From the IMG/VR virus record IMGVR_UViG_3300027519_000001: a stretch of 64,000 bases of DNA; one strand, given 5' to 3'. A program made the translations under genes and the position numbers. Shown one piece after another: positions 10,586-33,497 of the stretch. Source of the DNA: a virus. Below the pieces are notes generated by a model. The model was not told the origin of the DNA and made no database searches. It saw nothing but the letters and a program-made list of their open reading frames with translations. Position 1 is the stretch's first letter; every line of letters begins with the position of its first letter.

Positions 10586-12097
10586 ATGGCACAAGAAGCT
10601 AGCATTAAAAGTCTTGTACCTAGCAAGAATAAAGAGGGAACTAGTTTAAAGACTGATTCCCTAAAAAGTTTAGAATACAGTTCAGAACAACCTGTTAGCG
10701 AAAGAGCTATTGCCCAAATCGGATTCAATAAGAGAACAGGCACACTCAACTTTATCAGACATAATGGTGAAGCTGTAGAAGTGTCTGGATTCTTAACACT
10801 TGGTCAGATGGGTGAGGGACCTCGTGGAGAAAAAGGCCCTAATGGTAAGAAAGGACGCGATGGTAGGGTCGGTCGTGATGGTAAAAAAGGAAAGACTGGA
10901 TGTGAAGGACCGATTGGACCTACTGGTGAATCTGGAAATAAAGGTCTAGATGGTAACGATGGTGAAACTGGTATTACTGGATATACAGGATGTCCCGGTC
11001 CTATTGGATTGCGTGGAGACACTGGTGAAGATGGTGACGTTGGTAACATGGGGCCTGTTGGACCTGCTGGACCTAGCTGTATAGTTGGTGAGCGTGGTAT
11101 TCAAGGAATTAAACCAGCGGAAACAGTATACTATGGAGAAAACGCACCAGACTCGAACTACTTTCTTTGGGCACGACCTAGTGGTACTGCTCTTCCATCC
11201 CCTATAGTAGAAGCTGAACCAATGTCAGGACAAGTAACAGATGTTAGTGTTAGACTAGCACATGTTACTGATGATTCTTACGGCGGTAACGCTATTCTTT
11301 CATTGACTAACTTTGAAGGTGGAATAGGCCCTTTCAGTTACAAGTGGATTGATACGGATAGTAGTATACGCGAAGCTGGAATTTCTATTGATGGTTCTTC
11401 TACTTCACGTTCATTAAAGATTGCTGCATTACGTACTATTCAACCTCAACAAAGCTACAACTTTTCAGGTAAGATGGAACTTGTTATTACCGATAAAGGA
11501 GATAACAATAAACGTCTGTCTATCAAAAATATTCGTTTCTCTTTCTCTGGTTATAATAGTCGTGACAACGAAGAAGAGACAGAGCCTGGTGGTCCTGTAA
11601 TAGTTGGCGGTGGTGGTTGCGTTCATGAAGATACACCAATTCTTATGTGGGATGGTAGTACTAAACGTGCCAAGTACGTCAAAGTAGGCGATACGTTACA
11701 GTCTTTTACTTCGGTAGGAATGCTAGACGAAGACGAGAGCGACTGGAAAGAGTGGAAGACTACAGAATTCAAGAATCCTAAGATTGTACCTACTACAGCG
11801 CGTGTTGCTTATAACGCTAGCTATGTGCAGTACTGGAAGATTAACAATGACGTATGTATTACGCAAGACCACCCTGTTCTGGTTAGAAAAAATCAGCAGT
11901 GGGGTTGGTATGATGTTACGGAAGTTTCAGTTGGTGACTTCCTTAAAGGTACAGACGGAGTTATTGAAATCAAGTCTATCGATCACATTAAAGAAAATCT
12001 CAATGTTGTCGTACTAGATGTTGAACCGTATGATAACTACTTTGCCGGACATGAGCCTATTGTTGTCCATAACACAACACAGACGGTTAAGCACTAA
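10586..12097 (+). CDS. collagen-like fibre protein with PKD-like domain and C-terminal Hint autoprocessing domain (503 aa)
   Basis: 29+3 GXY triplets. FSYKW...ELVITDKGDN is PKD-like. GGGGC followed by Hint blocks that end VVHN. Confidence 0.85.
   Translation: MAQEASIKSLVPSKNKEGTSLKTDSLKSLEYSSEQPVSERAIAQIGFNKRTGTLNFIRHNGEAVEVSGFLTLGQMGEGPRGEKGPNGKKGRDGRVGRDGKKGKTGCEGPIGPTGESGNKGLDGNDGETGITGYTGCPGPIGLRGDTGEDGDVGNMGPVGPAGPSCIVGERGIQGIKPAETVYYGENAPDSNYFLWARPSGTALPSPIVEAEPMSGQVTDVSVRLAHVTDDSYGGNAILSLTNFEGGIGPFSYKWIDTDSSIREAGISIDGSSTSRSLKIAALRTIQPQQSYNFSGKMELVITDKGDNNKRLSIKNIRFSFSGYNSRDNEEETEPGGPVIVGGGGCVHEDTPILMWDGSTKRAKYVKVGDTLQSFTSVGMLDEDESDWKEWKTTEFKNPKIVPTTARVAYNASYVQYWKINNDVCITQDHPVLVRKNQQWGWYDVTEVSVGDFLKGTDGVIEIKSIDHIKENLNVVVLDVEPYDNYFAGHEPIVVHNTTQTVKH
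10817..11113 (+). repeat. collagen-like GXY tract (29 uninterrupted triplets, then CIV, then 3 more)
   Basis: Gly at every third residue from G78 to S164. There are two G-C-x-G-P triplets. Confidence 0.95.
11618..12073 (+). other. Hint (intein/Hedgehog/BIL-type) domain
   Basis: Cys345 (tgc 11618-11620) follows GGGG. CVHEDTPILMWDG (block A), ITQDHP (TxxH, block B), VVLDVEPYDNYFAG (block F), IVVHN (block G), then Thr. Only 7 aa follow. Confidence 0.8.
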
Positions 12098-12558
12098 TGA
12101 TTAAGCAAAGGATTACTACAGGAACAGATACTCTTCAAAGTAAGAATACACAAGATGTATTCGTAGGCGATCAGATTACTGCATTAAGAATAGGTGCTAT
12201 GCCTAGTTCTAGATTTGGCAATCAAGAGTTCGCTATGGCGTGGGTTACAAAAGACGTTCAAGGAAAAGTGATTGAAGGCACTGTTATAGACCGCGAAATA
12301 TTTATACGCAGTGGATACTATAAAATAAACTTGATGCACTTTGTAGCCGACCAACCCATTTTAATCAAGCGTACTGATTTTTGGGAATGGAAGAAGCCTC
12401 CACAAATTCAAAAAGGCGATGTTATGTTTGGACACTCTACGCAATTTAAAGTAGAGACAATTTCTTTTATAGAAGTTAGTGTACAGACATTTGAATTAAA
12501 GGTTGATATGTGCGATACATATTTTCTAAACGGCATTTTAGTACATAACAGGGTTTAA
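12097..12558 (+). CDS. free-standing degenerate Hint-like protein (153 aa)
   Basis: It aligns by eye with both Hint domains: VGDQITAL; YYKINLMHFVADQPILIKRTDFWEW against YWKINNDVCITQDHPVLVRKNQQWGW; and LKVDMCDTYFLNGILVHN. It lacks Cys1, and TxxH is replaced by ADQP. TAATG overlap with the upstream gene. Confidence 0.65.
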   Translation: MIKQRITTGTDTLQSKNTQDVFVGDQITALRIGAMPSSRFGNQEFAMAWVTKDVQGKVIEGTVIDREIFIRSGYYKINLMHFVADQPILIKRTDFWEWKKPPQIQKGDVMFGHSTQFKVETISFIEVSVQTFELKVDMCDTYFLNGILVHNRV

Positions 12559-12560
12559 TT

Positions 12561-13196
12561 ATGCTTACAAAAATTCCTGTAACTATGGTACGATCATCAG
12601 GTGACGAAGGCAGTAGTGTAGTTGTCAAAAACGGAAAGCTTGCTACGTCTAGCGAAGCAGTCGATACCACCAGCGAAATCGAAGCTGGATTCTATGACCA
12701 AGGAAGCGGCATTCTTACACTAACTTTTGCTAGCGGTAATGAGATTGCTATTACTGGTTTTCCGACATTTGATAGCATTCCTCAGGGTCAACAAGGGCCT
12801 CAGGGAGAAGCTGGTGAAGATGGTCGTGATGGACGCGATGGTAAAGACGGCGAAGTTGGTGACGAAGGCTGTGTTGGACCTATTGGACCTACAGGCCCTC
12901 GTGGAGAAGATGGACAAAATGGTCGTGATGGACAAGTTGGACTTCCCGGTCCTGCTGGATGTGCTGGACCTATGGGCCCTCGTGGACTACAAGGAAAGAA
13001 AGGTGAGCGTGGTGATGTAGGCCCAACTGGACCTACTGGTGCTACAGGTCCTACGGGCCCACGTGGAGAGCAAGGCCCTGCTGGAAACATCAACATAGTT
13101 ATTAGTAGTACAGACCCTGGCTCTAGCATAGGACCTGGCTCTATTTGGGTAAATCCAGATATAGGTCAGTACGATGATGACTTAGACCAATTTTAA
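12561..13196 (+). CDS. collagen-like fibre protein (211 aa)
   Basis: 33 GXY triplets. It shares the N-terminal module FYDQGSGILTLTF..ITGFPT and the C-terminal DPGSSIGPGSIWVNP motif. Confidence 0.85.
   Translation: MLTKIPVTMVRSSGDEGSSVVVKNGKLATSSEAVDTTSEIEAGFYDQGSGILTLTFASGNEIAITGFPTFDSIPQGQQGPQGEAGEDGRDGRDGKDGEVGDEGCVGPIGPTGPRGEDGQNGRDGQVGLPGPAGCAGPMGPRGLQGKKGERGDVGPTGPTGATGPTGPRGEQGPAGNINIVISSTDPGSSIGPGSIWVNPDIGQYDDDLDQF
12786..13082 (+). repeat. collagen-like GXY tract (33 triplets)
   Basis: G76 to A174, with Gly at every third residue. Confidence 0.95.
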
Positions 13197-13208
13197 GAGA
13201 GACTTATT

Positions 13209-13703
13209 ATGGCTATTACAAAAGCTAGCTTGAACATGATTAGTGGTGGTTCTACTGTAGGTAACGTAGAATCTTCGGGTAGAGGTTTGTCTATTGTAGC
13301 AGATGATGAAGTAGCAGACACGTTAGAAGGCTACTATGATAATACGTCTGGTACTCTTACTCTAAGCATCCCAGGTTATCCAGTTCTACGTATAAATAAC
13401 TTCATGACGCAAAGTGATGTTGGTACTGGTAAAGAGGGACCGCAAGGTGTTTCTGGTAACGCTGGTATTAATGGACTTCTTGGCGAAAATGGATTGCGCG
13501 GTGAGCGTGGATGCAGAGGTCCTCGTGGCCCAGTTGGAGAACGTGGTGTTCGTGGTGCGCAAGGAAAGCAAGGGGAACAGGGACCTATTGGTGCTACTGG
13601 ACCTCAAGGCGAACATGGATTAGATGGTAAAGTAAGTATCTATATAACTACAGAAGACCCAGGTCCTGTTGGTGCTGGTGCTTTATGGATTAAACCTCGT
13701 TAA
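13209..13703 (+). CDS. collagen-like fibre protein (164 aa)
   Basis: About 22 GXY triplets. N-terminal YYDNTSGTLTLSI module and C-terminal EDPGPVGAGALWIKP. Confidence 0.85.
   Translation: MAITKASLNMISGGSTVGNVESSGRGLSIVADDEVADTLEGYYDNTSGTLTLSIPGYPVLRINNFMTQSDVGTGKEGPQGVSGNAGINGLLGENGLRGERGCRGPRGPVGERGVRGAQGKQGEQGPIGATGPQGEHGLDGKVSIYITTEDPGPVGAGALWIKPR
13428..13634 (+). repeat. collagen-like GXY tract (about 22-23 triplets)
   Basis: Periodic Gly from G74 to about V142. Confidence 0.9.
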
Positions 13704-13712
13704 GGTAGTGCT

Positions 13713-16700
13713 ATGACAACTACAAGACTAACAGTTCGTAATGCACAAGATAATGGTTGGCTCGACCAATGCAGCAGCGAGTTCTATTTCCGTGACGGGT
13801 TTAATAGTACGTGGATACGTTTTTATCCAGACCAAACACAAGTAAGAGATAGCGGAAACAACACTTGGATGCAGGTGGACTGTACTTTTGACGATGTACT
13901 AGACGACCCGTGTGCGAACCTAGCTATGCTTACTTCTCTTACTTGTTCTAACTCTATTCCAATTACAGAAGCAGGTTCTGGTGATGGTAGTGGTAGCGGT
14001 GGAAACGAGTTTGATATACTACGTGGATATCCAGAAGGCTACGACTTACCAGACGCAGGTCAAGCAGGCTTTGGACTAGAGAGAGCTTATGGTACGTATG
14101 AAGGGCAAGTTATCAACAGACCTGGAATCGAAAACACAAAAGAAACGTACACTAAGCCGGGCACTAATTCGTTCCTTGGAAGAGGTAGCTATGAAAATCC
14201 TAGTTATCTATCCACTCATACATTTTCTAATGGAAGTGCTATCACTGAAACAATTTATGAGTTAGGTGACAGAGGTGGTATATTTGAAATTCTTTATGCT
14301 TGTTACCATGAACAAGGTATCTCTATCGATGTATACTATCTTGGTGCGTTAATTGCTTCCACATGTGGCAGAGTTACGGGTAGAGGAAAACTAGAGTTCG
14401 GTCTAGACCCTGCAATTGGTTCTGGTGAAGACAGAGTAATGATACGAGTTCGCGGTGAAGACAAGTGCAGATGGATGTATTCCACTATAGGCCCTAAGTC
14501 ATTTCTTACTCTTCAAGATTTTGAACCCGGCAACAATAGACACTTAGCGCAAGTTCGTACTACTGAGTATATTGGTACTAGCTTGTTTCCAGCACCTGCG
14601 CATAGCCGTGTAACTCCATTCGAGAACAGAATTACAGATGGACAATATTGGGTAGAGTACGTTCACACAGTTGGACTAGTTGACCCTGCTACAGGTCCTT
14701 ATATTCTTCATCTTAATTATGAGACTTGGGAAAATTCAGACTGGGTTGAAGTCTATCACGGCGGTGAACGTATTGCTTCAACTATGGGAAATAAAGACAC
14801 TGACGGATTACTATCTATTGTGTTCGACCCTTGGAGATTTGCAAACGCTGTTCCTGATATCGTAGTTAAAGTAATGGCTAGACAGCGCGAGTACGGAGCA
14901 GATATACTTTCACAAGAGTACATGCTTTACGATCCAAATACTCGTGGATACAAAGAAAATCGTTGGCCGTGTGAAGTACCAGAGTCAGGTATAAATAGTG
15001 CTGGACACCACAGTACAGAAGACCATTATTTAATGAATGACCTCGATAACGGAGTAGCTTCAATTAAAGTTACTGGATATGGAGACTTTACTTATACTGC
15101 TAGCGTATTTAACAAGAAAGGTGAATTGATAACTGCTAAACGTAGCAGAGGTACGACTTTCTTACAGTGGTTCAGACTTGAAGAAGATGTAGGCTATGAA
15201 GACTTGCGAGAAATCAGTGTACGTATCGATTGCCCTATTGACAGCAGTTGGGCTTATTGGGTTGGCTGTTATATTCCTCTCCTAGATGTAGAGATTGATG
15301 ATCAGGAAGTTCCAAACTGTCCTGACGTTCAAATAGCTATCAACAGTATCACAGTAGCGGAAGGTTCTACAGCTAAATTTACAGTAGGTCTTAACTATCC
15401 AATTGACGAAGACTTGTCTTTGAATTACAGAACGGAAGATATGACTGCTAGTAGCGAAGCCGTTGCAGCAGGCGAAGTTAACCCGTACCCTCTTTTCAGA
15501 GATAACAATGATGTATCTTCGGTTGTCTACTCAGATGACGATTTAGGATATACATTGATGTTAGAGGCTGACCCTCATAGACTATACGACATTGACAATT
15601 ACTTACAAACTGCTACTACTCAGAATGCTACTGATGGAAGAAGTGACGTAGACCGCAGCGTATCAACGTATGCCGAACTTAATGACTATCAGAAGATGAT
15701 AGTTAACATGTTGAAGCACCGTCTTGGTTCTTTATCTAATAAAAAGCTTTTAGTGGTAACCCACCAGCGTATTCAATACTATGCAACTCCGTATGACCCT
15801 GATCCAAGGGTGGAAGAGCGAGAGTATGAAATAGTTTACCAAATGTCTACAGTTATGGACTTCTTCACTAAGTCACTGACAAACATTTACGGTATTCAGG
15901 TTGATGTTCATGTAGTTAATGAGTTTGACTCGCATGGTACAGTTAAGCAAGGCAGCTTTACTAATCAAGATGCAACCTATAGCTCGCCTAAAAATATTGT
16001 AGGTAACTATGATATTATTGTATCTGATCAGTTTAGTGAGTGGAGACACCACGTTAAAGAAAATGCAGGAGTAGATACTTCTAATCATTTCTTGAATAAG
16101 ATGTTTAGTCTTGAACAAGGTACTGCTTTTGGTGTTGCTGTAGCTAGAGCAGCTAAAGGTTCTAAACCTATGGTAGTGATTAGCGCAGCAGCTTTCGATA
16201 TCAGTACCGCAGGTAACTACTATAGATTTGCAAATGCTCATGCGAAAGACCTTATAAACTCTTTCAACATAAAAAGTCATGTAGACATATTAGCGTCAGA
16301 TTCTACTATTAGTAGTCCGTCTGGTGCGCGTAGTGTATCTGTTCAGCAAATAAAAGACAAAGCAGGCGATAGCTATCTATTTGAAGACTTGTCTGGGTCG
16401 GGTTCATTTGAAAACCAAAGCGGTGTTAAAAGAATGACAAAGTTCGTTCTTGCTAACACAGGTTCAGATGGAAGCCCTTCTACACCTATAGCTAATGCTG
16501 ACTATCAAGCCAAGACAGGAACTTTAACTATTCCAGCAGGCGCAGGTAGTGGTACTATTAGCGTCAATACTTTTGCGGACAGTGAACGTGACCCGAATGA
16601 GCAATTTAAAGTTATCATCTACGATGCGAGCGTTGGAGCTATAATTCAAGATGAAGGCATTGCTACTATTGTAGAATCTTCTGCCCCTGTTCAAGGAGAT

Positions 16701-17810
16701 ATGAACATTGTGTACACTGGAACTCTTAGAAGTACTGGTACTGCAAAAGTTACTGCAACTAAGTACGCACACCCTGAAACTATTCTAGCTTTCAAGATTA
16801 ACTCTAACAAGTTAGATATGGATTGGGGTTCAGACGGTGACTTGGGTGATGGTGTTCCCGAATACTCAGAAGACAATGGAAAAGTATCTGTATTCACTAT
16901 GTCTAAAACTGCGGATAGTGCTACAAGTGGAGTCGATGACAAAGCAGCAGGTACTAACTGGACTAGTAGACTATTAGCGGAATTTGAATTTGACCCAGCG
17001 CGTTCTTATACCTATAAGTGGAACGTTGTTACAGTTAACAATTCAATTCCAGGCTCACGCGTATCAGTTAAGCCTTACTGTGCCTTTGATGAATCCAAAG
17101 AAACATCGACGGTACATAGTAATGTTTCTAACTACAGCGCTAATAACCAATGCATGAGTATTCAGTTTGAACGTGCGGTTTCTAATTCGAGCTTAGCAGG
17201 AATTGCCAATTTAACAGTAGAGATATTCGTTAAAGACGACTTAGGCAATATACAAAAGTCTTCACCTATAGAAGTGAGCTTGCAGCAAAAAGCACAAGTT
17301 TACTCAGGCGGTGGCGGTGGTGGTTGTATATCTTTTGGAACAATGGTCGTGCTAGAAGATGGAAAGACTATCAACGCTGAAAGACTTAAAGTAGGTGATA
17401 AGGTAGTAGGTGAATACATTCCAAATATGATTGACGAAAACGTCGAAGGCTGGGAAGATTGGACGACTGAATCCGTTAATGGAAGATATCCTGTAGTAAG
17501 TACTGTTAGAGCAGTTAAGCATGATTGGTTCAGAGAGTATTGGGTTATCAACGGTGATGTGGAAATAACTGAACAGCATCATATATTTGTTAAGCGTAAC
17601 GATACTTGGCAATGGATGGACGTTAGGGATATACGTATCGGCGATAAACTTCTTTCTATTTACGAAGATAAAGAGATAGTTGTTGGTACGTTAAACCGAA
17701 TAGACGATCCTATTGATGTAGTGTGCTTAGATGTAGAAGAAAACGACTGCTACTATGTAGGTAAGAATCCTTTCTTGGTGCATAACATTAATTACGAGAG
17801 AGCAAAGTAA
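13713..17810 (+). CDS. giant structural/adhesin-like protein with interrupted Calx-beta, PKD-like domain and C-terminal Hint domain (1365 aa)
   Basis: Calx-beta halves at aa 538-581 and 927-990. YTYKW...LTVEIFVKDDLGN is PKD-like. GGGGGGC is followed by Hint blocks ending LVHN. Confidence 0.8.
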   Translation: MTTTRLTVRNAQDNGWLDQCSSEFYFRDGFNSTWIRFYPDQTQVRDSGNNTWMQVDCTFDDVLDDPCANLAMLTSLTCSNSIPITEAGSGDGSGSGGNEFDILRGYPEGYDLPDAGQAGFGLERAYGTYEGQVINRPGIENTKETYTKPGTNSFLGRGSYENPSYLSTHTFSNGSAITETIYELGDRGGIFEILYACYHEQGISIDVYYLGALIASTCGRVTGRGKLEFGLDPAIGSGEDRVMIRVRGEDKCRWMYSTIGPKSFLTLQDFEPGNNRHLAQVRTTEYIGTSLFPAPAHSRVTPFENRITDGQYWVEYVHTVGLVDPATGPYILHLNYETWENSDWVEVYHGGERIASTMGNKDTDGLLSIVFDPWRFANAVPDIVVKVMARQREYGADILSQEYMLYDPNTRGYKENRWPCEVPESGINSAGHHSTEDHYLMNDLDNGVASIKVTGYGDFTYTASVFNKKGELITAKRSRGTTFLQWFRLEEDVGYEDLREISVRIDCPIDSSWAYWVGCYIPLLDVEIDDQEVPNCPDVQIAINSITVAEGSTAKFTVGLNYPIDEDLSLNYRTEDMTASSEAVAAGEVNPYPLFRDNNDVSSVVYSDDDLGYTLMLEADPHRLYDIDNYLQTATTQNATDGRSDVDRSVSTYAELNDYQKMIVNMLKHRLGSLSNKKLLVVTHQRIQYYATPYDPDPRVEEREYEIVYQMSTVMDFFTKSLTNIYGIQVDVHVVNEFDSHGTVKQGSFTNQDATYSSPKNIVGNYDIIVSDQFSEWRHHVKENAGVDTSNHFLNKMFSLEQGTAFGVAVARAAKGSKPMVVISAAAFDISTAGNYYRFANAHAKDLINSFNIKSHVDILASDSTISSPSGARSVSVQQIKDKAGDSYLFEDLSGSGSFENQSGVKRMTKFVLANTGSDGSPSTPIANADYQAKTGTLTIPAGAGSGTISVNTFADSERDPNEQFKVIIYDASVGAIIQDEGIATIVESSAPVQGDMNIVYTGTLRSTGTAKVTATKYAHPETILAFKINSNKLDMDWGSDGDLGDGVPEYSEDNGKVSVFTMSKTADSATSGVDDKAAGTNWTSRLLAEFEFDPARSYTYKWNVVTVNNSIPGSRVSVKPYCAFDESKETSTVHSNVSNYSANNQCMSIQFERAVSNSSLAGIANLTVEIFVKDDLGNIQKSSPIEVSLQQKAQVYSGGGGGGCISFGTMVVLEDGKTINAERLKVGDKVVGEYIPNMIDENVEGWEDWTTESVNGRYPVVSTVRAVKHDWFREYWVINGDVEITEQHHIFVKRNDTWQWMDVRDIRIGDKLLSIYEDKEIVVGTLNRIDDPIDVVCLDVEENDCYYVGKNPFLVHNINYERAK
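17325..17786 (+). other. Hint (intein/Hedgehog/BIL-type) domain
   Basis: Cys1205 (tgt 17325-17327) follows six Gly. CISFGTMVVLEDG, ITEQHH (TxxH), VVCLDVEENDCYYVG, FLVHN. Seven aa (INYERAK) follow, and the +1 residue is Ile. Confidence 0.8.
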
Positions 17811-17811
17811 T

Positions 17812-20406
17812 ATGGCACAAGTGAACCCGTGGGTTGAAATTTATTACAGCCCAACGGGAACACGCTCGTATAATCATGAGTGGGTTCCCAATAAAGAGTA
17901 CTGCATTCAAGTACACGAAAAAGATAAAGATGATGAAGTAGGTCATTCATTTATAAAAATACCACCTGATATGGATCTTCAAAAACCAACTACAGGTACT
18001 ATTGGATGGAGAGTAAGCGGAGGTATCGATCACTTAGTTGTTGCAGAAATAACTACAACAGGCCTAAAGAGGTTTAGACTTGAACGTTCTCAAGGTAACA
18101 GCACTATTGTTCGTATATCAGAAAGAGACCTAGTTCCAGATTCTTCTCTACTAGACCCTGCTGATAACACTGCTGAGTTTGAACTTTGGTACACAACTCA
18201 AGGTAGAGCCTTAACAATACCTAACTTTGATGTAGATTATGAATATCTGTTCGTAATACAATGTGACCAATCGAGTTCGGAACGCTATTATAGCGGAACA
18301 AGCTTTTACAACTTCTCAAGTCCTTATACACTTAGTTCTCACATTCATAGTAGAATGATTCACTATTGGGGATTAGGTGGTTGGGATGACTGGTTTAGAT
18401 TAACAGGTAAAACAGTTACAGCAACCTATCCTACTACAAAATTTAAAGGTCCTGGGCAGCATAAGATGTACAGAATATATCGTAGACCTATGAACTATGA
18501 TATAAATAAGAATTTCTACAATACGTTTAAGTCTGTATCCAAAGGAAGTCAGCCGCTAGACAGAATATCTGTATCTAAAGCTTCTATGCCTATGAATGAG
18601 GAGTACATGTTTGCTACTCTAGATACAAAGGGAGACAACGAGCTTTGTATGCAAGGACAGATGGTTTTAACTGAAAAATTAATGTCTTTGTTTACACCTA
18701 ATGCAGGCTTTGCACACCAGGCTGGTACAGATCATTGGATGGAAGTAATAGGAACTCCTTCTTCTTACTACTGGACTGTAGATTCACGAAGCGGTAGATG
18801 GTTAGAAATTTTTAGAAAGGTAACAGTAGAAGAATACGTAGCACCTCCTGATGAACCAGATCCAGAGCCATTACCTCCTCCACCAGAACCCGATCCTATT
18901 ATTCCTTGCGAAGATAGATGCTTGAATGAAGGCGATACGTTTGTATCAGAAGTTAAAGTAGAGGTTCGCTTTGTAGACCCACCTGATTGGCAACTAAGAC
19001 GATATAAATACGAATGGAAAAGTAAACACAAAGAGCTTAGCTTAAAAGGTGTTGAACAGAACGGTCGTATCGGCATATTTAAACTTACGCGTACTGTTAC
19101 AGAAGCAGATAGCAATCAACTAATACCATACACCGTTAGTGTTACTGTATCGGATTTAGATTATGCAACGGCTGGTGTGTCAGATGCAGACGAGGCTGTA
19201 TTAAGTTTTGAAATGCCTTGCGTTGTTGTTAATAACGAAACTGAATTCTCTGTTAACGATATTAACGTTGCCGAGTGTGGTGCTAGTGACAACGATACTA
19301 CAGCTACTTTCACTATTACTTCTAGTGAGGCTGTTATAGGTGATAGTCGTACAGTAGAGTATTCTACAACTGGAATAACTGCTACTTCTGGTAGTGACTT
19401 TACGGCTGCTACGGGCACAGTAACATTTGACGAAGGCGATACGTCTAAGCAGGTGGATATTGTTATCAAATGTGATGACGTTCCAGAGAAAGATGAAACC
19501 TTTAAGCTCGTTATCTCGAACCCTAGTATCGGGACTATTGGTAAAAGTGAGGGTATTGCTACTATTGTAGATGATTCTCCTGATGTTACAGTAGTTGAAT
19601 TAGCTAGTGAGGGTGAAAGCTACCAAGTATATATCTATCGTGACATTAGTGGGTCTATGTTGGGTCAGAACATGAATCTAAATGGCGACATATCTGCAAC
19701 TAGAGATAATATAGCTGTACAGATTCTTAACGACTTTTTGATTCCTAGCGCAAACGTTGTAGGTTCAGCAGGCGCATCTGTTACGTTCTTTACTTCTTAT
19801 GTAAGATGGGTATTAGACAACTTACCTGCAAATCAAAAGAAAGTAAGTATTCTATTTGTAACAGATGCAGAAGACGGGTATGGATCAGGCGCACCTAACC
19901 TAATTGGATATAGTAGTGCTAGTGACAATCACCCTCCTGTAGAATCTCACGGTAATGTGACAGGCAATCAATATGCAGCTACTCCGGAAGCTACTGCTGT
20001 AGTAGCACAAGAGGGAAGTACTTGGTCTTCCACTATCGGTACAGTGCCTGCGCATATTGAAGAAATGAAAATTACTGTAGTACGTCTGTTACCTCAATCT
20101 AGCATTGATGCTGCGGAAGACTCTAGAAATAGTGGAAACCCAAATAATACGGCAGTAGCAGAAGATGGATTTAATGGAATTCTTACTACAGCGCCGTCCA
20201 TTGTTACTCAAGCTAGCTTTGAAACTTTCAGTAGTTATACGACTGGCGAAGATAGTGTTCTTAATGACCGTATTTCGGAGGCTGTTCTAAATACGTATAC
20301 TGCTTATTGCGCTAAGTCACCTGATGATACTATCAGCGTACAAGCCGCAGATGAAACAGAAGCTAAGAGCAAAGCTAAACCACTACTGAACTGCCCGGAT
20401 GATTAA
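17812..20406 (+). CDS. structural/adhesin-like protein with Pro-rich linker, PKD-like, Calx-beta and VWA domains (864 aa)
   Basis: See the sub-features below. The start codon follows the stop of the previous gene by 1 nt. Confidence 0.8.
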   Translation: MAQVNPWVEIYYSPTGTRSYNHEWVPNKEYCIQVHEKDKDDEVGHSFIKIPPDMDLQKPTTGTIGWRVSGGIDHLVVAEITTTGLKRFRLERSQGNSTIVRISERDLVPDSSLLDPADNTAEFELWYTTQGRALTIPNFDVDYEYLFVIQCDQSSSERYYSGTSFYNFSSPYTLSSHIHSRMIHYWGLGGWDDWFRLTGKTVTATYPTTKFKGPGQHKMYRIYRRPMNYDINKNFYNTFKSVSKGSQPLDRISVSKASMPMNEEYMFATLDTKGDNELCMQGQMVLTEKLMSLFTPNAGFAHQAGTDHWMEVIGTPSSYYWTVDSRSGRWLEIFRKVTVEEYVAPPDEPDPEPLPPPPEPDPIIPCEDRCLNEGDTFVSEVKVEVRFVDPPDWQLRRYKYEWKSKHKELSLKGVEQNGRIGIFKLTRTVTEADSNQLIPYTVSVTVSDLDYATAGVSDADEAVLSFEMPCVVVNNETEFSVNDINVAECGASDNDTTATFTITSSEAVIGDSRTVEYSTTGITATSGSDFTAATGTVTFDEGDTSKQVDIVIKCDDVPEKDETFKLVISNPSIGTIGKSEGIATIVDDSPDVTVVELASEGESYQVYIYRDISGSMLGQNMNLNGDISATRDNIAVQILNDFLIPSANVVGSAGASVTFFTSYVRWVLDNLPANQKKVSILFVTDAEDGYGSGAPNLIGYSSASDNHPPVESHGNVTGNQYAATPEATAVVAQEGSTWSSTIGTVPAHIEEMKITVVRLLPQSSIDAAEDSRNSGNPNNTAVAEDGFNGILTTAPSIVTQASFETFSSYTTGEDSVLNDRISEAVLNTYTAYCAKSPDDTISVQAADETEAKSKAKPLLNCPDD
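19246..19575 (+). other. Calx-beta domain
   Basis: FSVNDINVAECG...TVEYSTTGITATSGSDFTAATGTVTFDEGDTSKQVDIVIKCDDVPEKDETFKLVISNP..IGKSEGIATIVDD matches the Calx-beta consensus (tA..g.DF....G.l.F..G...k.i.v.i.dD...E..E.F.v.l). Confidence 0.8.
19621..20110 (+). other. von Willebrand factor A-like domain (approximate limits)
   Basis: YQVYIYRDISGSMLG carries a DxSxS MIDAS motif, followed by VTFFTS and ILFVTDAEDG beta-strand motifs in the VWA order. Confidence 0.6.
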
Positions 20407-28576: not shown

Positions 28577-28813
28577 ATGCCTATTAATGGTAATCGTCTA
28601 TTCATTGCTAGTGGTCATACGCATGTTCAAGAAGACCCTAGCAGTACTTGGACTGTAAAACATAACATGGGTCGAGAGGTTGTTGCAGACGTTCTTGTAC
28701 ATATTGATGGTGTGTTAGAAAAGATTCTTCCACAAAGCCAAATCAATACTGACACCAATACGCTAACTGTAAACTTCTCTAGACCTTTTACAGGTAAAGT
28801 AAGGGTAGTATAA
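28577..28813 (+). CDS. single-module protein (78 aa), stand-alone W-T-V-x-HN module
   Basis: SSTWTVKHNMGREVVADVLVHIDG...TLTVNFSRPFTGKVRVV. GGAG RBS. Confidence 0.65.
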   Translation: MPINGNRLFIASGHTHVQEDPSSTWTVKHNMGREVVADVLVHIDGVLEKILPQSQINTDTNTLTVNFSRPFTGKVRVV

Positions 28814-29391
28814 TGAAAGTAGATGGTGTTGACTTAATTGACGGCAGTAAGATATCTCGTGAGTTGATTGACTTTCGTGGTGCAGTCTTTCCAGAAACTC
28901 CCGAAGACGGGCAGCTCTTTCAGTTAACTGCTACTGTAGACACTAAAGAGCCAGGCATCTATGTGTACAGTTCAGCAAGAGGCGATTGGATTGTTCAAGA
29001 AGATACAGAAAGACAGCCTTATGATATTGCGCTATCTGTTATCGGAAGACCTAAGCCAGATGCTATTGTCGCAAACTACATTGCAGTTCGTACTGCAACA
29101 ATCTATGCAGACTTCGATAGAAGTTTAGCGTTAGCCCAAGATGCCGCAACAAGTGAAGCTATTTTCAGTATGCGTATCATCGATAGTGATGGAAACGTTG
29201 TACGTGAAATTGGTACTATCACTTTTGCAGCAGGTGTCAAAGCTGGAACATTCACTCCTGCCACACCTAGCGTACCGATGCTTATTCAGAGAGGTGAAAT
29301 TGTTTCACTTAAAGCACCAGAAGTTCGGGACGCGACACTTAAAGAAATTTCAATAACGATTGCTGGGCAACTGGCAGTACTAGCAGACTAG
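28813..29391 (+). CDS. hypothetical structural protein (192 aa)
   Basis: TAATG coupling. The N-terminus (VDLIDGSKI...FPETPEDGQLFQLT) resembles the N-termini of the two preceding fibre proteins. Confidence 0.6.
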   Translation: MKVDGVDLIDGSKISRELIDFRGAVFPETPEDGQLFQLTATVDTKEPGIYVYSSARGDWIVQEDTERQPYDIALSVIGRPKPDAIVANYIAVRTATIYADFDRSLALAQDAATSEAIFSMRIIDSDGNVVREIGTITFAAGVKAGTFTPATPSVPMLIQRGEIVSLKAPEVRDATLKEISITIAGQLAVLAD

Positions 29392-29399
29392 GAATAACT

Positions 29400-29690
29400 A
29401 TGAAAATGCAACTTAATCTTTCTACTATCCAAGCAGTAGGTATGGAATATTTAAACCGTTCTGACAATCTTGCATTAAGCAGTAAAAGCACTAAGCAAGA
29501 AGAACTAAGTCCACTACAAGAAGAATACAGAAAGTTCTTTTTAGGTCAGCTTGAAGAGCATGGTTTCGATAGAAGCCCAGCAGAAGGCAACGAAGAAGAA
29601 CTGCGTGAATTCTTTAACAATATTAAAGCTCGTTGGAAAGTGCGCAAGCGTGAACTAGCTGATAAAGGTATTGTGGGTGCAGAAGATTAA
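29400..29690 (+). CDS. hypothetical protein (96 aa)
   Basis: ORF in the operon. Soluble and charged. Confidence 0.5.
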   Translation: MKMQLNLSTIQAVGMEYLNRSDNLALSSKSTKQEELSPLQEEYRKFFLGQLEEHGFDRSPAEGNEEELREFFNNIKARWKVRKRELADKGIVGAED

Positions 29691-29705
29691 GTTGCTCGTA
29701 GTGCG

Positions 29706-30056
29706 ATGGATGTAATTGACCTACTCGGACCTATAGCTAATTATTCTTGGGGCTATATACTTCTTAGCTTCTCAGTAACTATCTTGGGTACACTGGTACA
29801 CTACGTTAAGAAGTGTATTAAACTTGAGGCAGACTGGAATACATACTGGTCTAAAAATAAACCTCAGACAATTACAGCTATCTTTGCAGTACTTGGATCA
29901 TACTTTACAATCTTGTATACAGAAGCAGATCCAAGTTTGCTGACCTTCATAGCAGTAGGTTACGCAATAGATAGTATGTTTAACAAAGCACCACCAAGCT
30001 CTAAAGTCCCTAAGCGAAGAGCTAGTGATGCGTTTAGACAGGATGATACTCAATGA
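29706..30056 (+). CDS. holin candidate (116 aa, three predicted TM helices, charged C-tail)
   Basis: WGYILLSFSVTILGTLVHYV, TITAIFAVLGSYFTILY and LLTFIAVGYAIDSMF, followed by KVPKRRASDAFRQDD. Confidence 0.55.
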   Translation: MDVIDLLGPIANYSWGYILLSFSVTILGTLVHYVKKCIKLEADWNTYWSKNKPQTITAIFAVLGSYFTILYTEADPSLLTFIAVGYAIDSMFNKAPPSSKVPKRRASDAFRQDDTQ

Positions 30057-30376
30057 CTGAGTGGTTTAAGCGCTGGTGGAAAGCGATATTAGCGGGTCTC
30101 GGTTTGATACTGTCGGGGCTTGCTATTGCTCTTACTGCTGGCAAGAAAGGAACAAAGGTTTCAGACCTTGAAAAGTCTATTAGAGATATAGACGATGAAC
30201 AAATGAAAGAAGAATTGGAGATTCACAAGGAGGTTAACAAAGCTCTACACAAAGAGCGAGAAGAACTTGCTGAACTCAATGATGAAGTACACAAGCAAAT
30301 AAAACAAATGCCTAAGTATGATCCTGAACTATCAGACGTTGATAACCTGAAAAAGATTGCAGAGTCCAAATGGTAA
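30053..30376 (+). CDS. i-spanin-like or antiholin-like membrane protein (107 aa)
   Basis: N-terminal TM segment AILAGLGLILSGLAIALTA, followed by a charged coiled-coil region. ATGA coupling. Confidence 0.5.
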   Translation: MTEWFKRWWKAILAGLGLILSGLAIALTAGKKGTKVSDLEKSIRDIDDEQMKEELEIHKEVNKALHKEREELAELNDEVHKQIKQMPKYDPELSDVDNLKKIAESKW

Positions 30377-30948
30377 AGAAGTTATTAGTGGTGTTGTCGT
30401 TAGCAATAGCCGGGTGTGCCTCCAATCCACAAGAAGTCACCAAAACTCCAAGTATCCAAAAAGAACTCTTTGATATAGAGCTTCTATCTCATGAACCTGT
30501 TAAACCCATTCCTTATCCAGAAGATTTAGAGCAACGAATTAAAGCAGCTACAGTAGTGCGCAAAACGTATGATCAAAACTTTGAGTTGTACCAAGAAGTA
30601 CACGTAGGGACCGAAGAAACTAATACAGATAAATTGCCTATTGCAGACCGTAATGACGAACTGTTTATATTGGTAGACACAGAGACAGTGTTTAAGATAA
30701 GGGATGCTGTAGTTTCTGCAAGAGATAATGGAAAGCTTGTAGAGAAACTTGATAAGATTCAAGAACTGAATATAGAAGAAAGGAATCAAATACTCCGTAT
30801 GCTTAGGCTAGAGTATATGCATAGTAAAAGAATGGAAGAATTCAATGAGTACTACAAGGATGAAATTAAACGCCAAGAAACAAGTAGTAGAATAGACTCG
30901 TTAACTTGGCGAATAATTGCAGTACTGTCTTTAGCCGTAGCTATTTAA
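30370..30948 (+). CDS. lipoprotein with C-terminal TM anchor (u-spanin-like architecture, 192 aa)
   Basis: Lipobox LAIAGC at residues 11-16. C-terminal hydrophobic tail LTWRIIAVLSLAVAI. The start overlaps the upstream stop (ATGGTAA). Confidence 0.6.
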   Translation: MVKKLLVVLSLAIAGCASNPQEVTKTPSIQKELFDIELLSHEPVKPIPYPEDLEQRIKAATVVRKTYDQNFELYQEVHVGTEETNTDKLPIADRNDELFILVDTETVFKIRDAVVSARDNGKLVEKLDKIQELNIEERNQILRMLRLEYMHSKRMEEFNEYYKDEIKRQETSSRIDSLTWRIIAVLSLAVAI

Positions 30949-30995
30949 CAAGTACGTCAGTCTTAACATCATAGACTTTGTTGGCGTAAGATAAG

Positions 30996-31037
30996 GCTAG
31001 GAATATTACAACGCACACAATTCCTAGCTTTCTTTTC
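30996..31037 (+). terminator. hairpin terminator at the convergence of the + and - blocks
   Basis: GCTAGGAAT-(15 nt)-ATTCCTAGC is a 9 bp stem, followed by TTTCTTTTC on the + strand. Confidence 0.7.
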
Positions 31038-31041
31038 ACAC

Positions 31042-31341
31042 TCACCTGTACGGTCTTGTATCGTAAGTCATTTTGATATTGCCCGGCTTTCTTTCGAGAC
31101 TATCGAAAACATATTGAGCTTTCGCTCTGTCCCCAAAATATCCCGATATAAAACACACTCCATTGACAAAGAATGCTCGACCTGGACGCATAACAAAATT
31201 GTACTTGTAATGTTCATATAGCCCATCAAGCTGAACACCATTGAAGATATACGATTCATTCAAGTACAGACCTATCGTTGTGACTATTTCAGTATCGCAA
31301 CAACTGTCCTCTATTAGGTCCATTCTGCTTAATGCTTCCAT
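31042..31341 (-). CDS. hypothetical protein (about 100 aa)
   Basis: The track ORF 31042..31521 overlaps the endolysin gene by 233 nt. Internal ATGs at 31341 and 31323 reduce the overlap to 53 or 35 nt. Confidence 0.45.
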   Translation of the reverse strand: MEALSRMDLIEDSCCDTEIVTTIGLYLNESYIFNGVQLDGLYEHYKYNFVMRPGRAFFVNGVCFISGYFGDRAKAQYVFDSLERKPGNIKMTYDTRPYR

Positions 31342-31858
31342 GAACCCATCCTGAGTTAGTTCCTCGTTCTGGTCTGTAGAATTCAAGAATGAGTTGATCG
31401 AACTGGAGGTTGTCTCTACACCAGTCGAACAACACTTGGTTCGATAAGCCTGCGAGTTCGAAATCGACGGCCATGCCCTTAGGATGTTGTTTGCGTTCAT
31501 AATACTCTCTCCACTCTTCATGGAAAATCTCTGGCAGAATATAAAGAGTTGGATACTTGCGATAAGTATTTTTATCTACACCCTCTACACCTTTGCGCAT
31601 AAGCTTGTTAAAAAATGATTCAGCACAAAGAACATATTCTAGTTCTTCACAGCGAAACCAGCTATTAGGACTGAAAGGTCTACGTGTCCAACTGCGCACA
31701 GGTTCAAGAATCTTTTCCGCTGTATATGCAGCACAGTCAAGAATCTGTTCTGTAATTGGAGTCGCATTGTCGATACCTAAACGCTGCGCTTCGTAGCTCT
31801 TGAATACTTCTTTAAACTTAAAGTGGGTTGAAACTTTATAATCTGGATCACGAATCAT
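31289..31858 (-). CDS. endolysin, peptidase M15 (VanY / L-Ala-D-Glu peptidase type)
   Basis: QHPKGMAVDFE fits the HxxGxAxD zinc motif, with a distal GWVHGS His. Confidence 0.8.
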   Translation of the reverse strand: MIRDPDYKVSTHFKFKEVFKSYEAQRLGIDNATPITEQILDCAAYTAEKILEPVRSWTRRPFSPNSWFRCEELEYVLCAESFFNKLMRKGVEGVDKNTYRKYPTLYILPEIFHEEWREYYERKQHPKGMAVDFELAGLSNQVLFDWCRDNLQFDQLILEFYRPERGTNSGWVHGSIKQNGPNRGQLLRY

Positions 31859-32399
31859 CGGACGAACTCCCGTAAATATGTGAATGTTGATTCTTAGGGT
31901 CTTTCGTAACTTCTGATGTTAGCCGTGCCATTTTGCTGTATACTGAATGAAAATCAATGTTCATCGCGTCACATGCTTTCATACAATTGAATCCAGCCTT
32001 GTCGTACTCGATTAAAAACTTACGAACTTTATCGGGTTTAAGCCTAAACATTCTAAAGAAATGCTCTTGCTCAATAACCGTTTCATAGACTGAGAAATAA
32101 GATATACGCAAGAAATCAAGTATGTCTCGTGCTGTTCCGAACCGCAGAGAAGCATAATACACAGGCAAAATAGGTAGATCGAGTTCTTCCCTAAATTGGT
32201 TCAAGTTAATCACACTGCCTGGAACTTGATAAATTCCGTACTTAACATACGTTTGACTAAGCTTGGTAATAACCTTGTCTTCATCGTATTCACTAGACAA
32301 CGCTCGGTCTAAGCCTTTAGTGTTTAGTTCCAATCTACGCTTTGCGTATGCGAAACTAGCGGGCTTTTCCTGTATTCTTTTAAACCAATAACTACTCAT
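31848..32399 (-). CDS. hypothetical protein (183 aa)
   Basis: Long ORF in the operon. Confidence 0.6.
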   Translation of the reverse strand: MSSYWFKRIQEKPASFAYAKRRLELNTKGLDRALSSEYDEDKVITKLSQTYVKYGIYQVPGSVINLNQFREELDLPILPVYYASLRFGTARDILDFLRISYFSVYETVIEQEHFFRMFRLKPDKVRKFLIEYDKAGFNCMKACDAMNIDFHSVYSKMARLTSEVTKDPKNQHSHIYGSSSDDS

Positions 32400-32401
32400 A
32401 T

Positions 32402-32776
32402 CTACACTTCTAACTCAGGGTCATCACCCTTCAAACTGCTATAGACTCGCATAAGTGCAGATGTAAAGCTTTCATCTGAGACAACAAATGCGTCGAACAA
32501 ATCAGGGTCTGTAGGATAAACGTGAATGTTAATCAGGTTTTCATACTTCCCTATAGTCAAATTAACACCATCAAGAACAGATGCATAATTATCCGGCAAG
32601 CTAGATACTTCTGATAGTACATCTGGATTTAGATTAGAACTAATACCATGAATCATACCTATGAAACCCACCAGCATTTCCAGCTTTGGATTCAAGTTTC
32701 TATACTGCCCTAACGCATCCAGTGCATCTAATAACGACTGATTGGTTTCTTTCAAAGACTGGTCTAATGAAGGCAT
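32402..32776 (-). CDS. hypothetical protein (124 aa)
   Basis: ORF beginning 4 nt after the stop of the peptidase gene. Confidence 0.6.
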   Translation of the reverse strand: MPSLDQSLKETNQSLLDALDALGQYRNLNPKLEMLVGFIGMIHGISSNLNPDVLSEVSSLPDNYASVLDGVNLTIGKYENLINIHVYPTDPDLFDAFVVSDESFTSALMRVYSSLKGDDPELEV

Positions 32777-32780
32777 AAAT

Positions 32781-33497
32781 TTATCCCTCTAGTTTGACTT
32801 GGTAGGTCTTAGTGTTTGCGTTTGTATTCGGGTCTAGCAAGCTAGTTGCACGAACAGCATTAGATAGTAGGAAAGGAATGTCGTGATACTTATCCAATGC
32901 ACCCGTTAAGAAGGCTTCGATGTTTGTCTCTGTACCAATTTGTTCTAGTGAACCTAGTACTGCACCAATTGCAATTCTAGAGCCAGAGCCTATACCAAGA
33001 AGTTTACCTTTCGCTACACTACCATCCGATGTTATATGGAACAAGCCGTGTGGAGTAGCTATTAAACAGTCCGCGTAAGTATCGGTACTGCATTCAGATT
33101 CAGAGCCTAGAACACAAGAGTTGTGCTTCACTGCAAGAGTAAGCATTTTCCAAAACAAAGATAGACCTTCAAAATTTAAAGCTTCTTTTGAAAAGTCGCT
33201 GGCTTGGTCTTGATCTAAGTCGAGGAAGTACAGCAAGCTATAGTACTCAAAAGAGTTTTCTTTTATTCCTAAAGCGTTAAATGCTTCAATGGAATTAAAC
33301 CCGCCTGCCTGAATTTGAATAAGAACACGCTTTACCAGATGTGTAACGTCAGCGTATCCAGAAAAGCAAATATAGTTCTTTCCTACACTAAATGCCTTCT
33401 GAGTAGTTTCGCTGCCTATATAGTTCATTCCAGTCAATCTTGAATCTACACAAAGATGAACACTATCTTTGCTTTGAATTCCTATACCCGTTGTCAT
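32781..33497 (-). CDS. HslV / proteasome beta-type (family T1, Ntn) threonine peptidase homologue (238 aa)
   Basis: MTTGIGIQSKDSVHLCVDSRLT...TQKAF. After Met removal this gives Thr1, Asp17 and Lys33 in the exact proteasome register. LLGIGSGSRIAIGAVLG supplies the GSG motif. Confidence 0.75.
   Translation of the reverse strand: MTTGIGIQSKDSVHLCVDSRLTGMNYIGSETTQKAFSVGKNYICFSGYADVTHLVKRVLIQIQAGGFNSIEAFNALGIKENSFEYYSLLYFLDLDQDQASDFSKEALNFEGLSLFWKMLTLAVKHNSCVLGSESECSTDTYADCLIATPHGLFHITSDGSVAKGKLLGIGSGSRIAIGAVLGSLEQIGTETNIEAFLTGALDKYHDIPFLLSNAVRATSLLDPNTNANTKTYQVKLEG

Follow-up and report, generated by a model that had tools for sequence, protein, structure and literature searches.

A Hint domain at the C terminus of a large tail-fibre protein of a marine jumbo phage: a probable self-removing end-module resembling type-A bacterial intein-like domains

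The 64,000-nucleotide stretch of IMG/VR virus record IMGVR_UViG_3300027519_000001 analysed here (hereafter, the window) derives from a marine jumbo phage and carries, in its tail-fibre module, the gene of a 1365-residue protein whose C-terminal 160 residues are a genuine Hint domain. We consider it likely that this domain, which resembles the type-A bacterial intein-like (BIL) domains, acts as a self-removing end-module with both of its junctions active. An original prediction, made from the sequence of this region, had placed a second Hint domain of the window on this protein, and Cys1205, TEQH, His-Asn and the other motifs it listed were found where it had put them. The protein ends in ...QQKAQVYSGGGGGG-C1205-ISFGTMVVLEDG...VEITEQHHIFV...VVCLDVEENDCYYVGKNPFLVHN-INYERAK, with a Gly-Cys junction that reads ...QVYSGGGGGG-C(1205), and its relevant elements are as follows.

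13713..17810, + strand: gene of the 1365-residue protein, in the tail-fibre module, with a Calx-beta domain at residues 926-974.
16983..17306, + strand: beta-rich segment (residues 1091-1198) ahead of the glycine run, the "PKD-like" part of the original prediction.
17307..17324, + strand: hexaglycine linker Gly1199-Gly1204, with Gly1204 as the -1 residue of the putatively scissile Gly-Cys bond.
17325..17786, + strand: Hint (BIL-like) domain of predicted autoprocessing activity, Cys1205-Asn1358, recognised with Pfam, AlphaFold2 (AF2) and Foldseek.
17325..17327, + strand: codon of Cys1205 (block A), predicted nucleophile of an N-S acyl shift, from family conservation.
17568..17579, + strand: block B motif Thr1286-Glu-Gln-His1289 (TxxH), from family conservation.
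17781..17786, + strand: His1357-Asn1358 (block G), predicted site of Asn cyclisation, from family conservation.
17787..17807, + strand: seven-residue tail INYERAK, with Ile at +1 and its sole lysine as the last residue, Lys1365.

The beta-fold typical of the HINT superfamily was recognised both by structure and by profile. In particular, the Pfam models PT-HINT, Intein_splicing and Hint all matched the isolated domain, the best-scoring one being PT-HINT (PF07591), which reached 30.4 bits against a gathering cut-off of 27.7 when residues 1199 to 1365 were scanned alone; a scan with NCBIfam gave no meaningful match. The AF2 model, built from 29 sequences, shows a predicted local distance difference test score mostly above 90 over residues ~1205 to 1358, with the glycine run modelled as disordered and the region upstream of it as an all-beta structure of low confidence. 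Furthermore, the comparison of the model with the PDB by Foldseek returned 24 Hint or intein structures at E<=1e-3, headed by the C. thermocellum BIL 2LWY (E 8.7e-9, template modelling [TM] score 0.79, 26% identity) and followed by Tetrahymena BUBL BIL2 (6Y75/6TMM) and then by mini-inteins, with Hedgehog 1AT0 as a weaker match (E 2.6e-4). The sequence search of the PDB agrees with this result, 2LWY being among the best matches there too.

Type-A BIL domains were reportedly described by Amitai et al. in 2003 and Dassa et al. in 2004. According to PMC4031507, these domains are defined by Cys1, block B, a C-terminal His-Asn and the absence of a +1 nucleophile, and they mostly cleave but can still ligate. 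All these sequence features occur in the phage domain, namely, Cys1205, Thr1286..His1289, His1357-Asn1358 and a +1 position with no conserved Cys, Ser or Thr, which is occupied by I, V, T and A across the four orthologues known to us (those of the window, of the IMG/VR jumbo contigs L002 and L003 and of Phage NCTB). The location is that of a type-A BIL as well, since the 154-residue domain leaves no room for an endonuclease and has diverse N-terminal partners; moreover, the Erwinia phage protein that matches the N-terminal half of the 1365-residue one has no Hint, in keeping with a location in a variable region. Different from a canonical class-1 intein, the domain is followed by Ile and by a "C-extein" that would consist of a nonconserved seven-residue tail, and the set of +1 residues in the orthologues (I, V, T and A) makes canonical class-1 splicing unlikely. 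Different from the pretoxin class, no C-terminal toxin domain but just seven residues follow Asn1358. The Hedgehog (Hog) class does not fit, as there is no region after the Hint domain, His-Asn is present and the structural match is weaker than that to the BILs. No match to a Peptidase S74 profile or to a Ser-Lys dyad module was obtained with Pfam or PHROG, the fold being that of Hint.

The distribution of the module was examined by scanning a profile of the two Hint domains of the window (the other one lies on a 503-residue collagen-like protein) with HMMER against 1.84 billion representatives of clusters defined at 50% identity. At E<=1e-10 the family is a large one, with 593 clusters; the number rises to 3290 at E<=1e-3 and falls to 43 at E<=1e-30. 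A word-index search for homologues had given two proteins, the NCTB orthologue not being one of them, so that nothing about rarity follows from that number, and the HMMER scan supersedes it. In nearly all of the best 150 clusters, the match ends 1 to 15 residues before the end of a protein of about 110 to 3400 residues (many of the shortest being fragments), and the members that we examined have the domain at the extreme C terminus of fibre- or adhesin-like proteins. The N-terminal parts of these relatives contain collagen, Big_2, fn3, CARDB and Flg_new domains, and the neighbours in BFVD are "uncultured Caudovirales" proteins named for fn3, PASTA, collagen or Hint domains. Moreover, the genomic context was that of a phage in all four cases examined, as indicated by terminase plus portal, by Mtd_N, by enzymes of lysis or by auxiliary genes of marine phages.

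The catalytic residues are highly conserved in the 139 full-length domains of the family: Cys1 is found in 98% of them, the Thr and His of block B in 91% and 92%, the Glu and Asp of block F in 93% and 88% and the terminal His-Asn in 100%. The typical junction consists of an oligo-Gly stretch, then Cys, then Phe, Leu or Ile; the -1 residue is Gly in 98 of 164 members (60%), often within a run of up to 11 glycines. Conversely, the +1 position is variable, with K in 37, A in 33, L in 16, V in 13 and S or T in 17 of 170 members, and C in none. We could also notice the occurrence of tandem Hint arrays with linkers of ~1 to 7 residues (for example, HN-K-PHI-CF, HN-KG-CL and HN-IPPI-CF) in the metagenomic proteins P0131, P0132, P0148, P0156, P0176, P0193, P0195, P0197 and P0074; these arrays resemble the BUBL locus, minus its ubiquitin domains.

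A distinctive feature of the family concerns the short tail that follows His-Asn. Of 189 members with a complete C terminus, 170 have a tail of <=20 residues, and Lys is present in 164 of these 170 tails, exactly once in 158, even though it makes up 3.7% of these proteins overall and random internal segments of equal lengths contain it in ~40 of 170, and in at most 55 in any of 1000 trials. Lys is the residue found in all 12 tails made of one residue and lies <=4 residues from the C terminus in 127 of the 170. Arg does not stand in for it and is not enriched (0.7-fold). The tails of the window, INYERAK and TTQTVKH, and those of the orthologues, VDTVNRKV, TDSFYRKN, APVDQKH and AVMVAKK, are in line with this pattern; the tail of the large protein shares one residue in seven with that of L002 and is not conserved save for the Lys. 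Being lysine specific, single and tolerant of position, the tail residue points to a chemical rather than an electrostatic role. Furthermore, the invariance of His-Asn, together with the near invariance of the single tail Lys, argues that selection acts on the C-terminal junction too, in the manner of type-A BILs. It follows that the preference for cleavage over splicing expressed in the original prediction stands as far as canonical splicing is concerned, which is unlikely, but is probably too simple as a description of the reaction; according to PMC4031507, type-A BILs can ligate without a +1 nucleophile.

The ratio of nonsynonymous to synonymous substitution rates (dN/dS), computed between the window and L002, was 0.065 for the Hint codons of the 1365-residue protein gene and 0.03 to 0.08 for the rest of the gene, and 0.08 and 0.12, respectively, for the Hint of the 503-residue protein gene and for a free-standing Hint open reading frame (ORF) next to it. 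These low values indicate that the Hint domain is maintained under purifying selection and is not decaying. At the same dN/dS, both dN and dS of the Hint codons in the large gene (window 17325-17786 versus L002 10001-10471) are about three times the upstream values, with a dS of 1.69 versus 0.47 to 0.81 upstream and in the rest of the gene. This pattern of substitution suggests that the Hint segment of the large gene has been exchanged by recombination, with a breakpoint in the vicinity of the Gly run.

Among GenBank records, that of Phage NCTB (LT598654, 258 kb) is the closest, with an identical gene order; two IMG/VR jumbo contigs (L002 and L003) and a fragment (L004) are also syntenic with the window. 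NCTB groups with Pseudomonas phages PaBG and Lu11 and with Erwinia/Dickeya jumbo myoviruses (PMC7412058), and a "hairy" tail morphology is described for some of the NCTB-related phages (PMC8472413). The labels "putative phage tail protein, contains intein domain," "intein domain protein" and "large intein domain protein" are attached to NCTB genes, meaning that the intein-type content of such genes is already flagged in public records, just as the BIL/Hint kind of domain is already known. The terminal Hint of the 1365-residue protein occupies the same place in all four orthologues, and those of L002, L003 and NCTB retain GGGGGG-C...HN followed by a tail of 7 or 8 residues. The N-terminal ~535 residues (13713-15320) are homologous to phrog_26008 and to gp107 of Erwinia phage Y3 (L008 10599-12617), a protein of 672 residues with a different C-terminal half and no Hint domain. 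Judged by sequence, this is the classic pattern of fibres, in which the proximal part is conserved and the distal part is swapped.

A search with the family hidden Markov model finds exactly three Hint ORFs in the window, all within the fibre module. The free-standing one was not listed in the original prediction; the two besides the large gene are the following.

10586..12097, + strand: gene of the 503-residue collagen-like fibre protein, with orthologue Y3_110 in Erwinia phage Y3 and an Ig-like segment at residues ~224-330.
11606-11617, + strand: Gly4 run of the 503-residue protein.
11618-12073, + strand: Hint domain of the 503-residue protein, Cys345-Asn496.
12074-12094, + strand: tail TTQTVKH of the 503-residue protein.
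12097..12558, + strand: free-standing 153-residue Hint-fold protein, with Met for Cys1, no TxxH and the end His-Asn-Arg-Val.

It had been proposed that a cassette of ~270 residues, made of a PKD-like segment, a poly-Gly run and a Hint domain, was copied between the two structural genes of this phage, and in both proteins the Hint does follow a Gly run, which is itself preceded by a beta-rich segment containing Y-x-Y-K-W. The relatedness of the two Hint domains over their whole length was confirmed, the interval 11618..12073 given for the first one being exactly Cys345-Asn496. In fact, the BLASTP comparison of residues 1090 to 1365 with residues 235 to 503 of the smaller protein yields a single alignment (53/154 identical residues, 34%; E 2e-29), which spans exactly from both junction Cys residues to both His-Asn pairs, but nothing upstream of the Cys aligns. 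Upstream of the Gly run, BLASTP finds no similarity between the two proteins, and the comparison by hhalign of the orthologue alignments (4 or 5 orthologues, and enlarged sets) gave probabilities of 1.1% and 5.1%, with an alignment limited to ten columns at Y-x-Y-K-W. In neither upstream segment (residues 1060 to 1198 in the large protein) does Pfam recognise a domain, PKD included, at E<=10. The segment of the 503-residue protein is Ig-like, with a profile match to the Ig-like domain of T5 decoration protein pb10 (5LXK, E 1.2e-6), the segment of the 1365-residue protein gives a weak match to the SiiE BIg domains in the PDB profile search (E 0.003), and each of them is found in its own orthologues only.

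The two Hint domains of the window are, by sequence comparison, not mutual nearest relatives. At least nine metagenomic Hint domains on unrelated proteins of 421 to 1871 residues are closer to the Hint of the large protein (37 to 52% identity) than that of the 503-residue protein (34 to 37%), and the reverse also holds, since the latter has closer relatives elsewhere. Together with upstream segments confined to orthologues, this indicates that both genes carry a widespread, shuffled end-module and not a recent intragenomic copy. The phage ranges differ too, the 503-residue type being common to Erwinia, Dickeya and Yersinia jumbo phages and the 1365-residue type occurring only in NCTB-like phages; the Erwinia protein Y3_110 (phrog_38766) reads ...TTG|CIVFG...THEHP...VLVHN|TDIVAKAEKL. 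In addition, an 864-residue neighbour (17812-20406, + strand), which has a clear Calx-beta domain (E 9e-15) and no Hint, reads YKYEWKS at residues ~394 to 400 and TVSVTVSDLD ~50 residues on, resembling the motifs taken as PKD-like; the motif is therefore not tied to the Hint module. Thus, the cassette claim is largely refuted and a copying event of this kind is highly improbable; an Ig-like fold shared by the upstream segments would not rescue it. The shared unit is, on the sequence comparisons, the Gly run, the Hint and the tail (~165 residues), shuffled among fibre genes.

On these grounds, the following course of events can be envisaged for the 1365-residue protein. After folding, and probably after assembly of the fibre, Cys1205 would attack the carbonyl of Gly1204 in an N-S acyl shift, helped by Thr1286 and His1289 of block B, to give a thioester. 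Asn1358 would then cyclise with the aid of His1357, detaching the heptapeptide tail. Resolution of the thioester would fall either to water or to a tail amine, the candidates being the epsilon-amine of the single conserved Lys and the newly formed alpha-amine, the latter having been proposed for type-A BILs. Finally, the ~17-kDa Hint domain would be discarded, and the mature protein of ~1204 residues would end in an oligoglycine, either free or capped by a Lys peptide. The 503-residue collagen-like protein and hundreds of other phage fibre- or adhesin-like proteins terminate in the same module. Procollagen C-propeptides provide an analogue for a temporary terminal module. Along with them, the S74 chaperones (PMC3742443) allow us to infer by analogy that the Hint domain may serve as a temporary end-module in the folding or assembly of the fibre.

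Some points weigh against the proposal of a self-removing end-module. Within the full-length 1365-residue protein, the Pfam matches fall below the curated cut-offs (PT-HINT, 23.1 bits), and the tail is modelled by AF2 with low confidence. No biochemical or proteomic evidence of cleavage was found in the literature on this phage or its relatives, and the role of the tail Lys is a putative one. We know of no Hint domain that trimerises, which makes the role of an assembly chaperone only an analogy.

The comparison with known systems helps to place the module. It shares with type-A BILs the Hint fold, Cys1, TxxH, His-Asn, the lack of a conserved +1 nucleophile and of an endonuclease, and the placement in variable, surface-type proteins. 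However, different from these domains, the phage Hint is strictly terminal, with a tail of 1 to 15 residues instead of a C-terminal flanking domain, usually follows an oligo-Gly run, resides in phage fibre genes and bears an insertion of ~20 residues (the IPNMIDENVEGWEDWTT region), and term look-ups in PMC4031507, PMC7664689 and PMC8616854 brought up no mention of a single conserved Lys in the tail. In Tetrahymena BIL2, the Gly that ends the upstream flank becomes attached through an isopeptide bond to the epsilon-amine of a lysine, which belongs to the downstream flank or to other proteins (PMC8616854, section 2.4). BIL2 is therefore similar in having an N-terminal flank that ends in Gly and is a precedent for a Lys acceptor, but its flanks are ubiquitin-like domains in a eukaryote, compared to a fibre protein and a seven-residue tail here, and its identity to the phage Hint is 15 to 17%. 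Hedgehog Hog/Hint (1AT0) has the C-terminal place and the Gly-Cys scissile bond in common with the phage domain and, by the analogy predicted here, a thioester intermediate that frees the functional N-terminal protein; however, Hog is without a C-terminal His-Asn and needs a sterol-recognition region, absent from the phage protein. Pretoxin PT-HINT, which provides the best-scoring Pfam model, precedes and frees a C-terminal toxin, whereas the phage Hint is followed by a short tail alone. Finally, the S74 or C-terminal intramolecular chaperones of phage tailspikes and fibres (endosialidase and T5 pb1; PMC3742443) would be alike in logic, as phage-fibre C-terminal modules that remove themselves autocatalytically after assembly, but their fold and chemistry, a Ser-Lys dyad in a trimeric domain, are unrelated, and no sequence or structural match to them was found here.

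It is possible to hypothesize, although we hold it rather doubtful, that the tail Lys is the built-in acceptor of the C-terminal glycine of the fibre, taken over from the Cys1 thioester, in a lysine-directed "isopeptide splicing," so that each mature fibre chain would terminate in a mini-peptide linked through Gly-(epsilon)Lys. In a variant of this scheme, the glycine would go instead to a lysine on a different virion protein, and in either case an ATP-independent, ubiquitin-like conjugation would take part in fibre maturation in hundreds of phage lineages. A purely trans transfer, in which an external nucleophile attacks the Gly-Cys thioester and the C-terminal Gly of the fibre is joined to a partner (a Lys of another virion protein, or an amine or lipid of the host surface), is suggested by the family junction of oligo-Gly, Cys and Phe, Leu or Ile, which recalls the G|CF of Hedgehog, and by the second structural match, Tetrahymena BIL2, whose N-terminal flank becomes linked through an isopeptide bond to lysines on other proteins (PMC8616854, section 2.4). 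However, the Hint domain is followed by only seven residues and by no sterol-recognition or other adaptor region, a purely trans reaction would have no need for the conservation in cis of His-Asn and the tail Lys, and a thioester at the junction would, from general chemistry, be too labile for a free virion, all of which makes this mechanism improbable.

We regard as quite improbable a Hint domain retained at the fibre tip as a catalytically silent structural or binding domain, without any processing. The conservation next door of a free-standing paralogue devoid of Cys1 and TxxH does indicate that the fold is useful without N-terminal cleavage, but both fused Hints and 91 to 100% of the family keep the residues for thioester formation and Asn cyclisation, and the flankless paralogue has lost exactly the residues of the N-terminal junction, as predicted if these are coupled to cleavage. 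As for a decaying canonical, mobile intein whose place close to the 3' end of the gene would be fortuitous, inteins do have the same fold together with Cys1, TxxH and His-Asn, yet there is no homing endonuclease, the insertion is not in a conserved enzyme site, the "C-extein" amounts to seven nonconserved residues and the +1 position has no conserved nucleophile. Moreover, the position is conserved across the orthologues under strong purifying selection, and the terminal place is common to nearly all of the best 150 family matches. Hardly any weight can thus be given to this explanation, and the view of the original prediction that the domain is no stray mobile intein holds, given the terminal place, the lack of an endonuclease, the retention in four orthologues and the dN/dS of 0.065.

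The free-standing Hint (12097-12558), whose initial Met takes the place of the Cys1 of the fused Hints and which lacks TxxH while keeping His-Asn, is retained in L002, L003, L004 and NCTB. For the NCTB orthologue, the model in BFVD can be superposed on our model of the Hint of the 1365-residue protein with a TM score of 0.91 and a root-mean-square deviation of 1.6 A. The window copy, which has neither an N-terminal flank nor Cys1, shows an Arg in the tail where Lys would be expected (HN-RV); this fits a coupling between the Lys and the thioester, the cases being too few to count as a test. Its gene lies directly upstream of two collagen-like genes without a Hint of their own, an arrangement that hints at an assembly role for the fold itself, and the protein may be a trans-acting assembly factor.

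The fibre module comprises an 808-residue fibre-like protein, the 503-residue collagen-like protein, the 153-residue ORF, two short collagen-like proteins, the 1365-residue protein and the 864-residue Calx-beta protein. The two short collagen-like proteins (12561-13196 and 13209-13703, + strand) have the N-terminal and collagen regions in common with the 503-residue protein, match positions 12 to 188 of phrog_38766 and are without the Ig-like and Hint parts. Long antisense ORFs inside the collagen-like genes (10804-11049 and 12800-13129) are by-products of the coding of Gly-X-Y repeats. Elsewhere in the window, the long ORFs change from the + to the - strand at ~28600 to 32800, where the sign of the GC skew flips at about the same place, and no tRNA genes were found in the 64 kb.

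The self-cleaving C-terminal modules known from the tail fibres and spikes of phages are of a single kind, the S74 intramolecular chaperone, and the locus described here suggests that an intein-type Hint domain provides another solution, based on a different chemistry. Our search of the literature on Hint or intein-like domains in tail fibres and on the virion proteomics of the Erwinia relatives returned nothing on this module; the matches concerned terminase or ribonucleotide reductase inteins, or S74 chaperones, and a functional study of the module was not among them. The combination of a strictly terminal place on phage fibre proteins, an oligo-Gly/Cys junction, an invariant His-Asn and a one-lysine tail is apparently undescribed in the literature searched. 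The module is frequent in uncultured phages, as the 593 clusters at E<=1e-10 indicate, and would mark the true mature C terminus of fibre and receptor-binding proteins, which has a bearing on virion proteomics, on the prediction of structures and on the engineering of host range. A sharp question is posed by the one-lysine tail, that is, whether the thioester is resolved by hydrolysis, peptide ligation or isopeptide ligation, and cultured relatives with the 503-residue type of protein (Erwinia phage Y3 gp110 and Yoloswag) make this question testable. Moreover, terminal mini-Hints with such tiny flanks could serve as tools for protein engineering.

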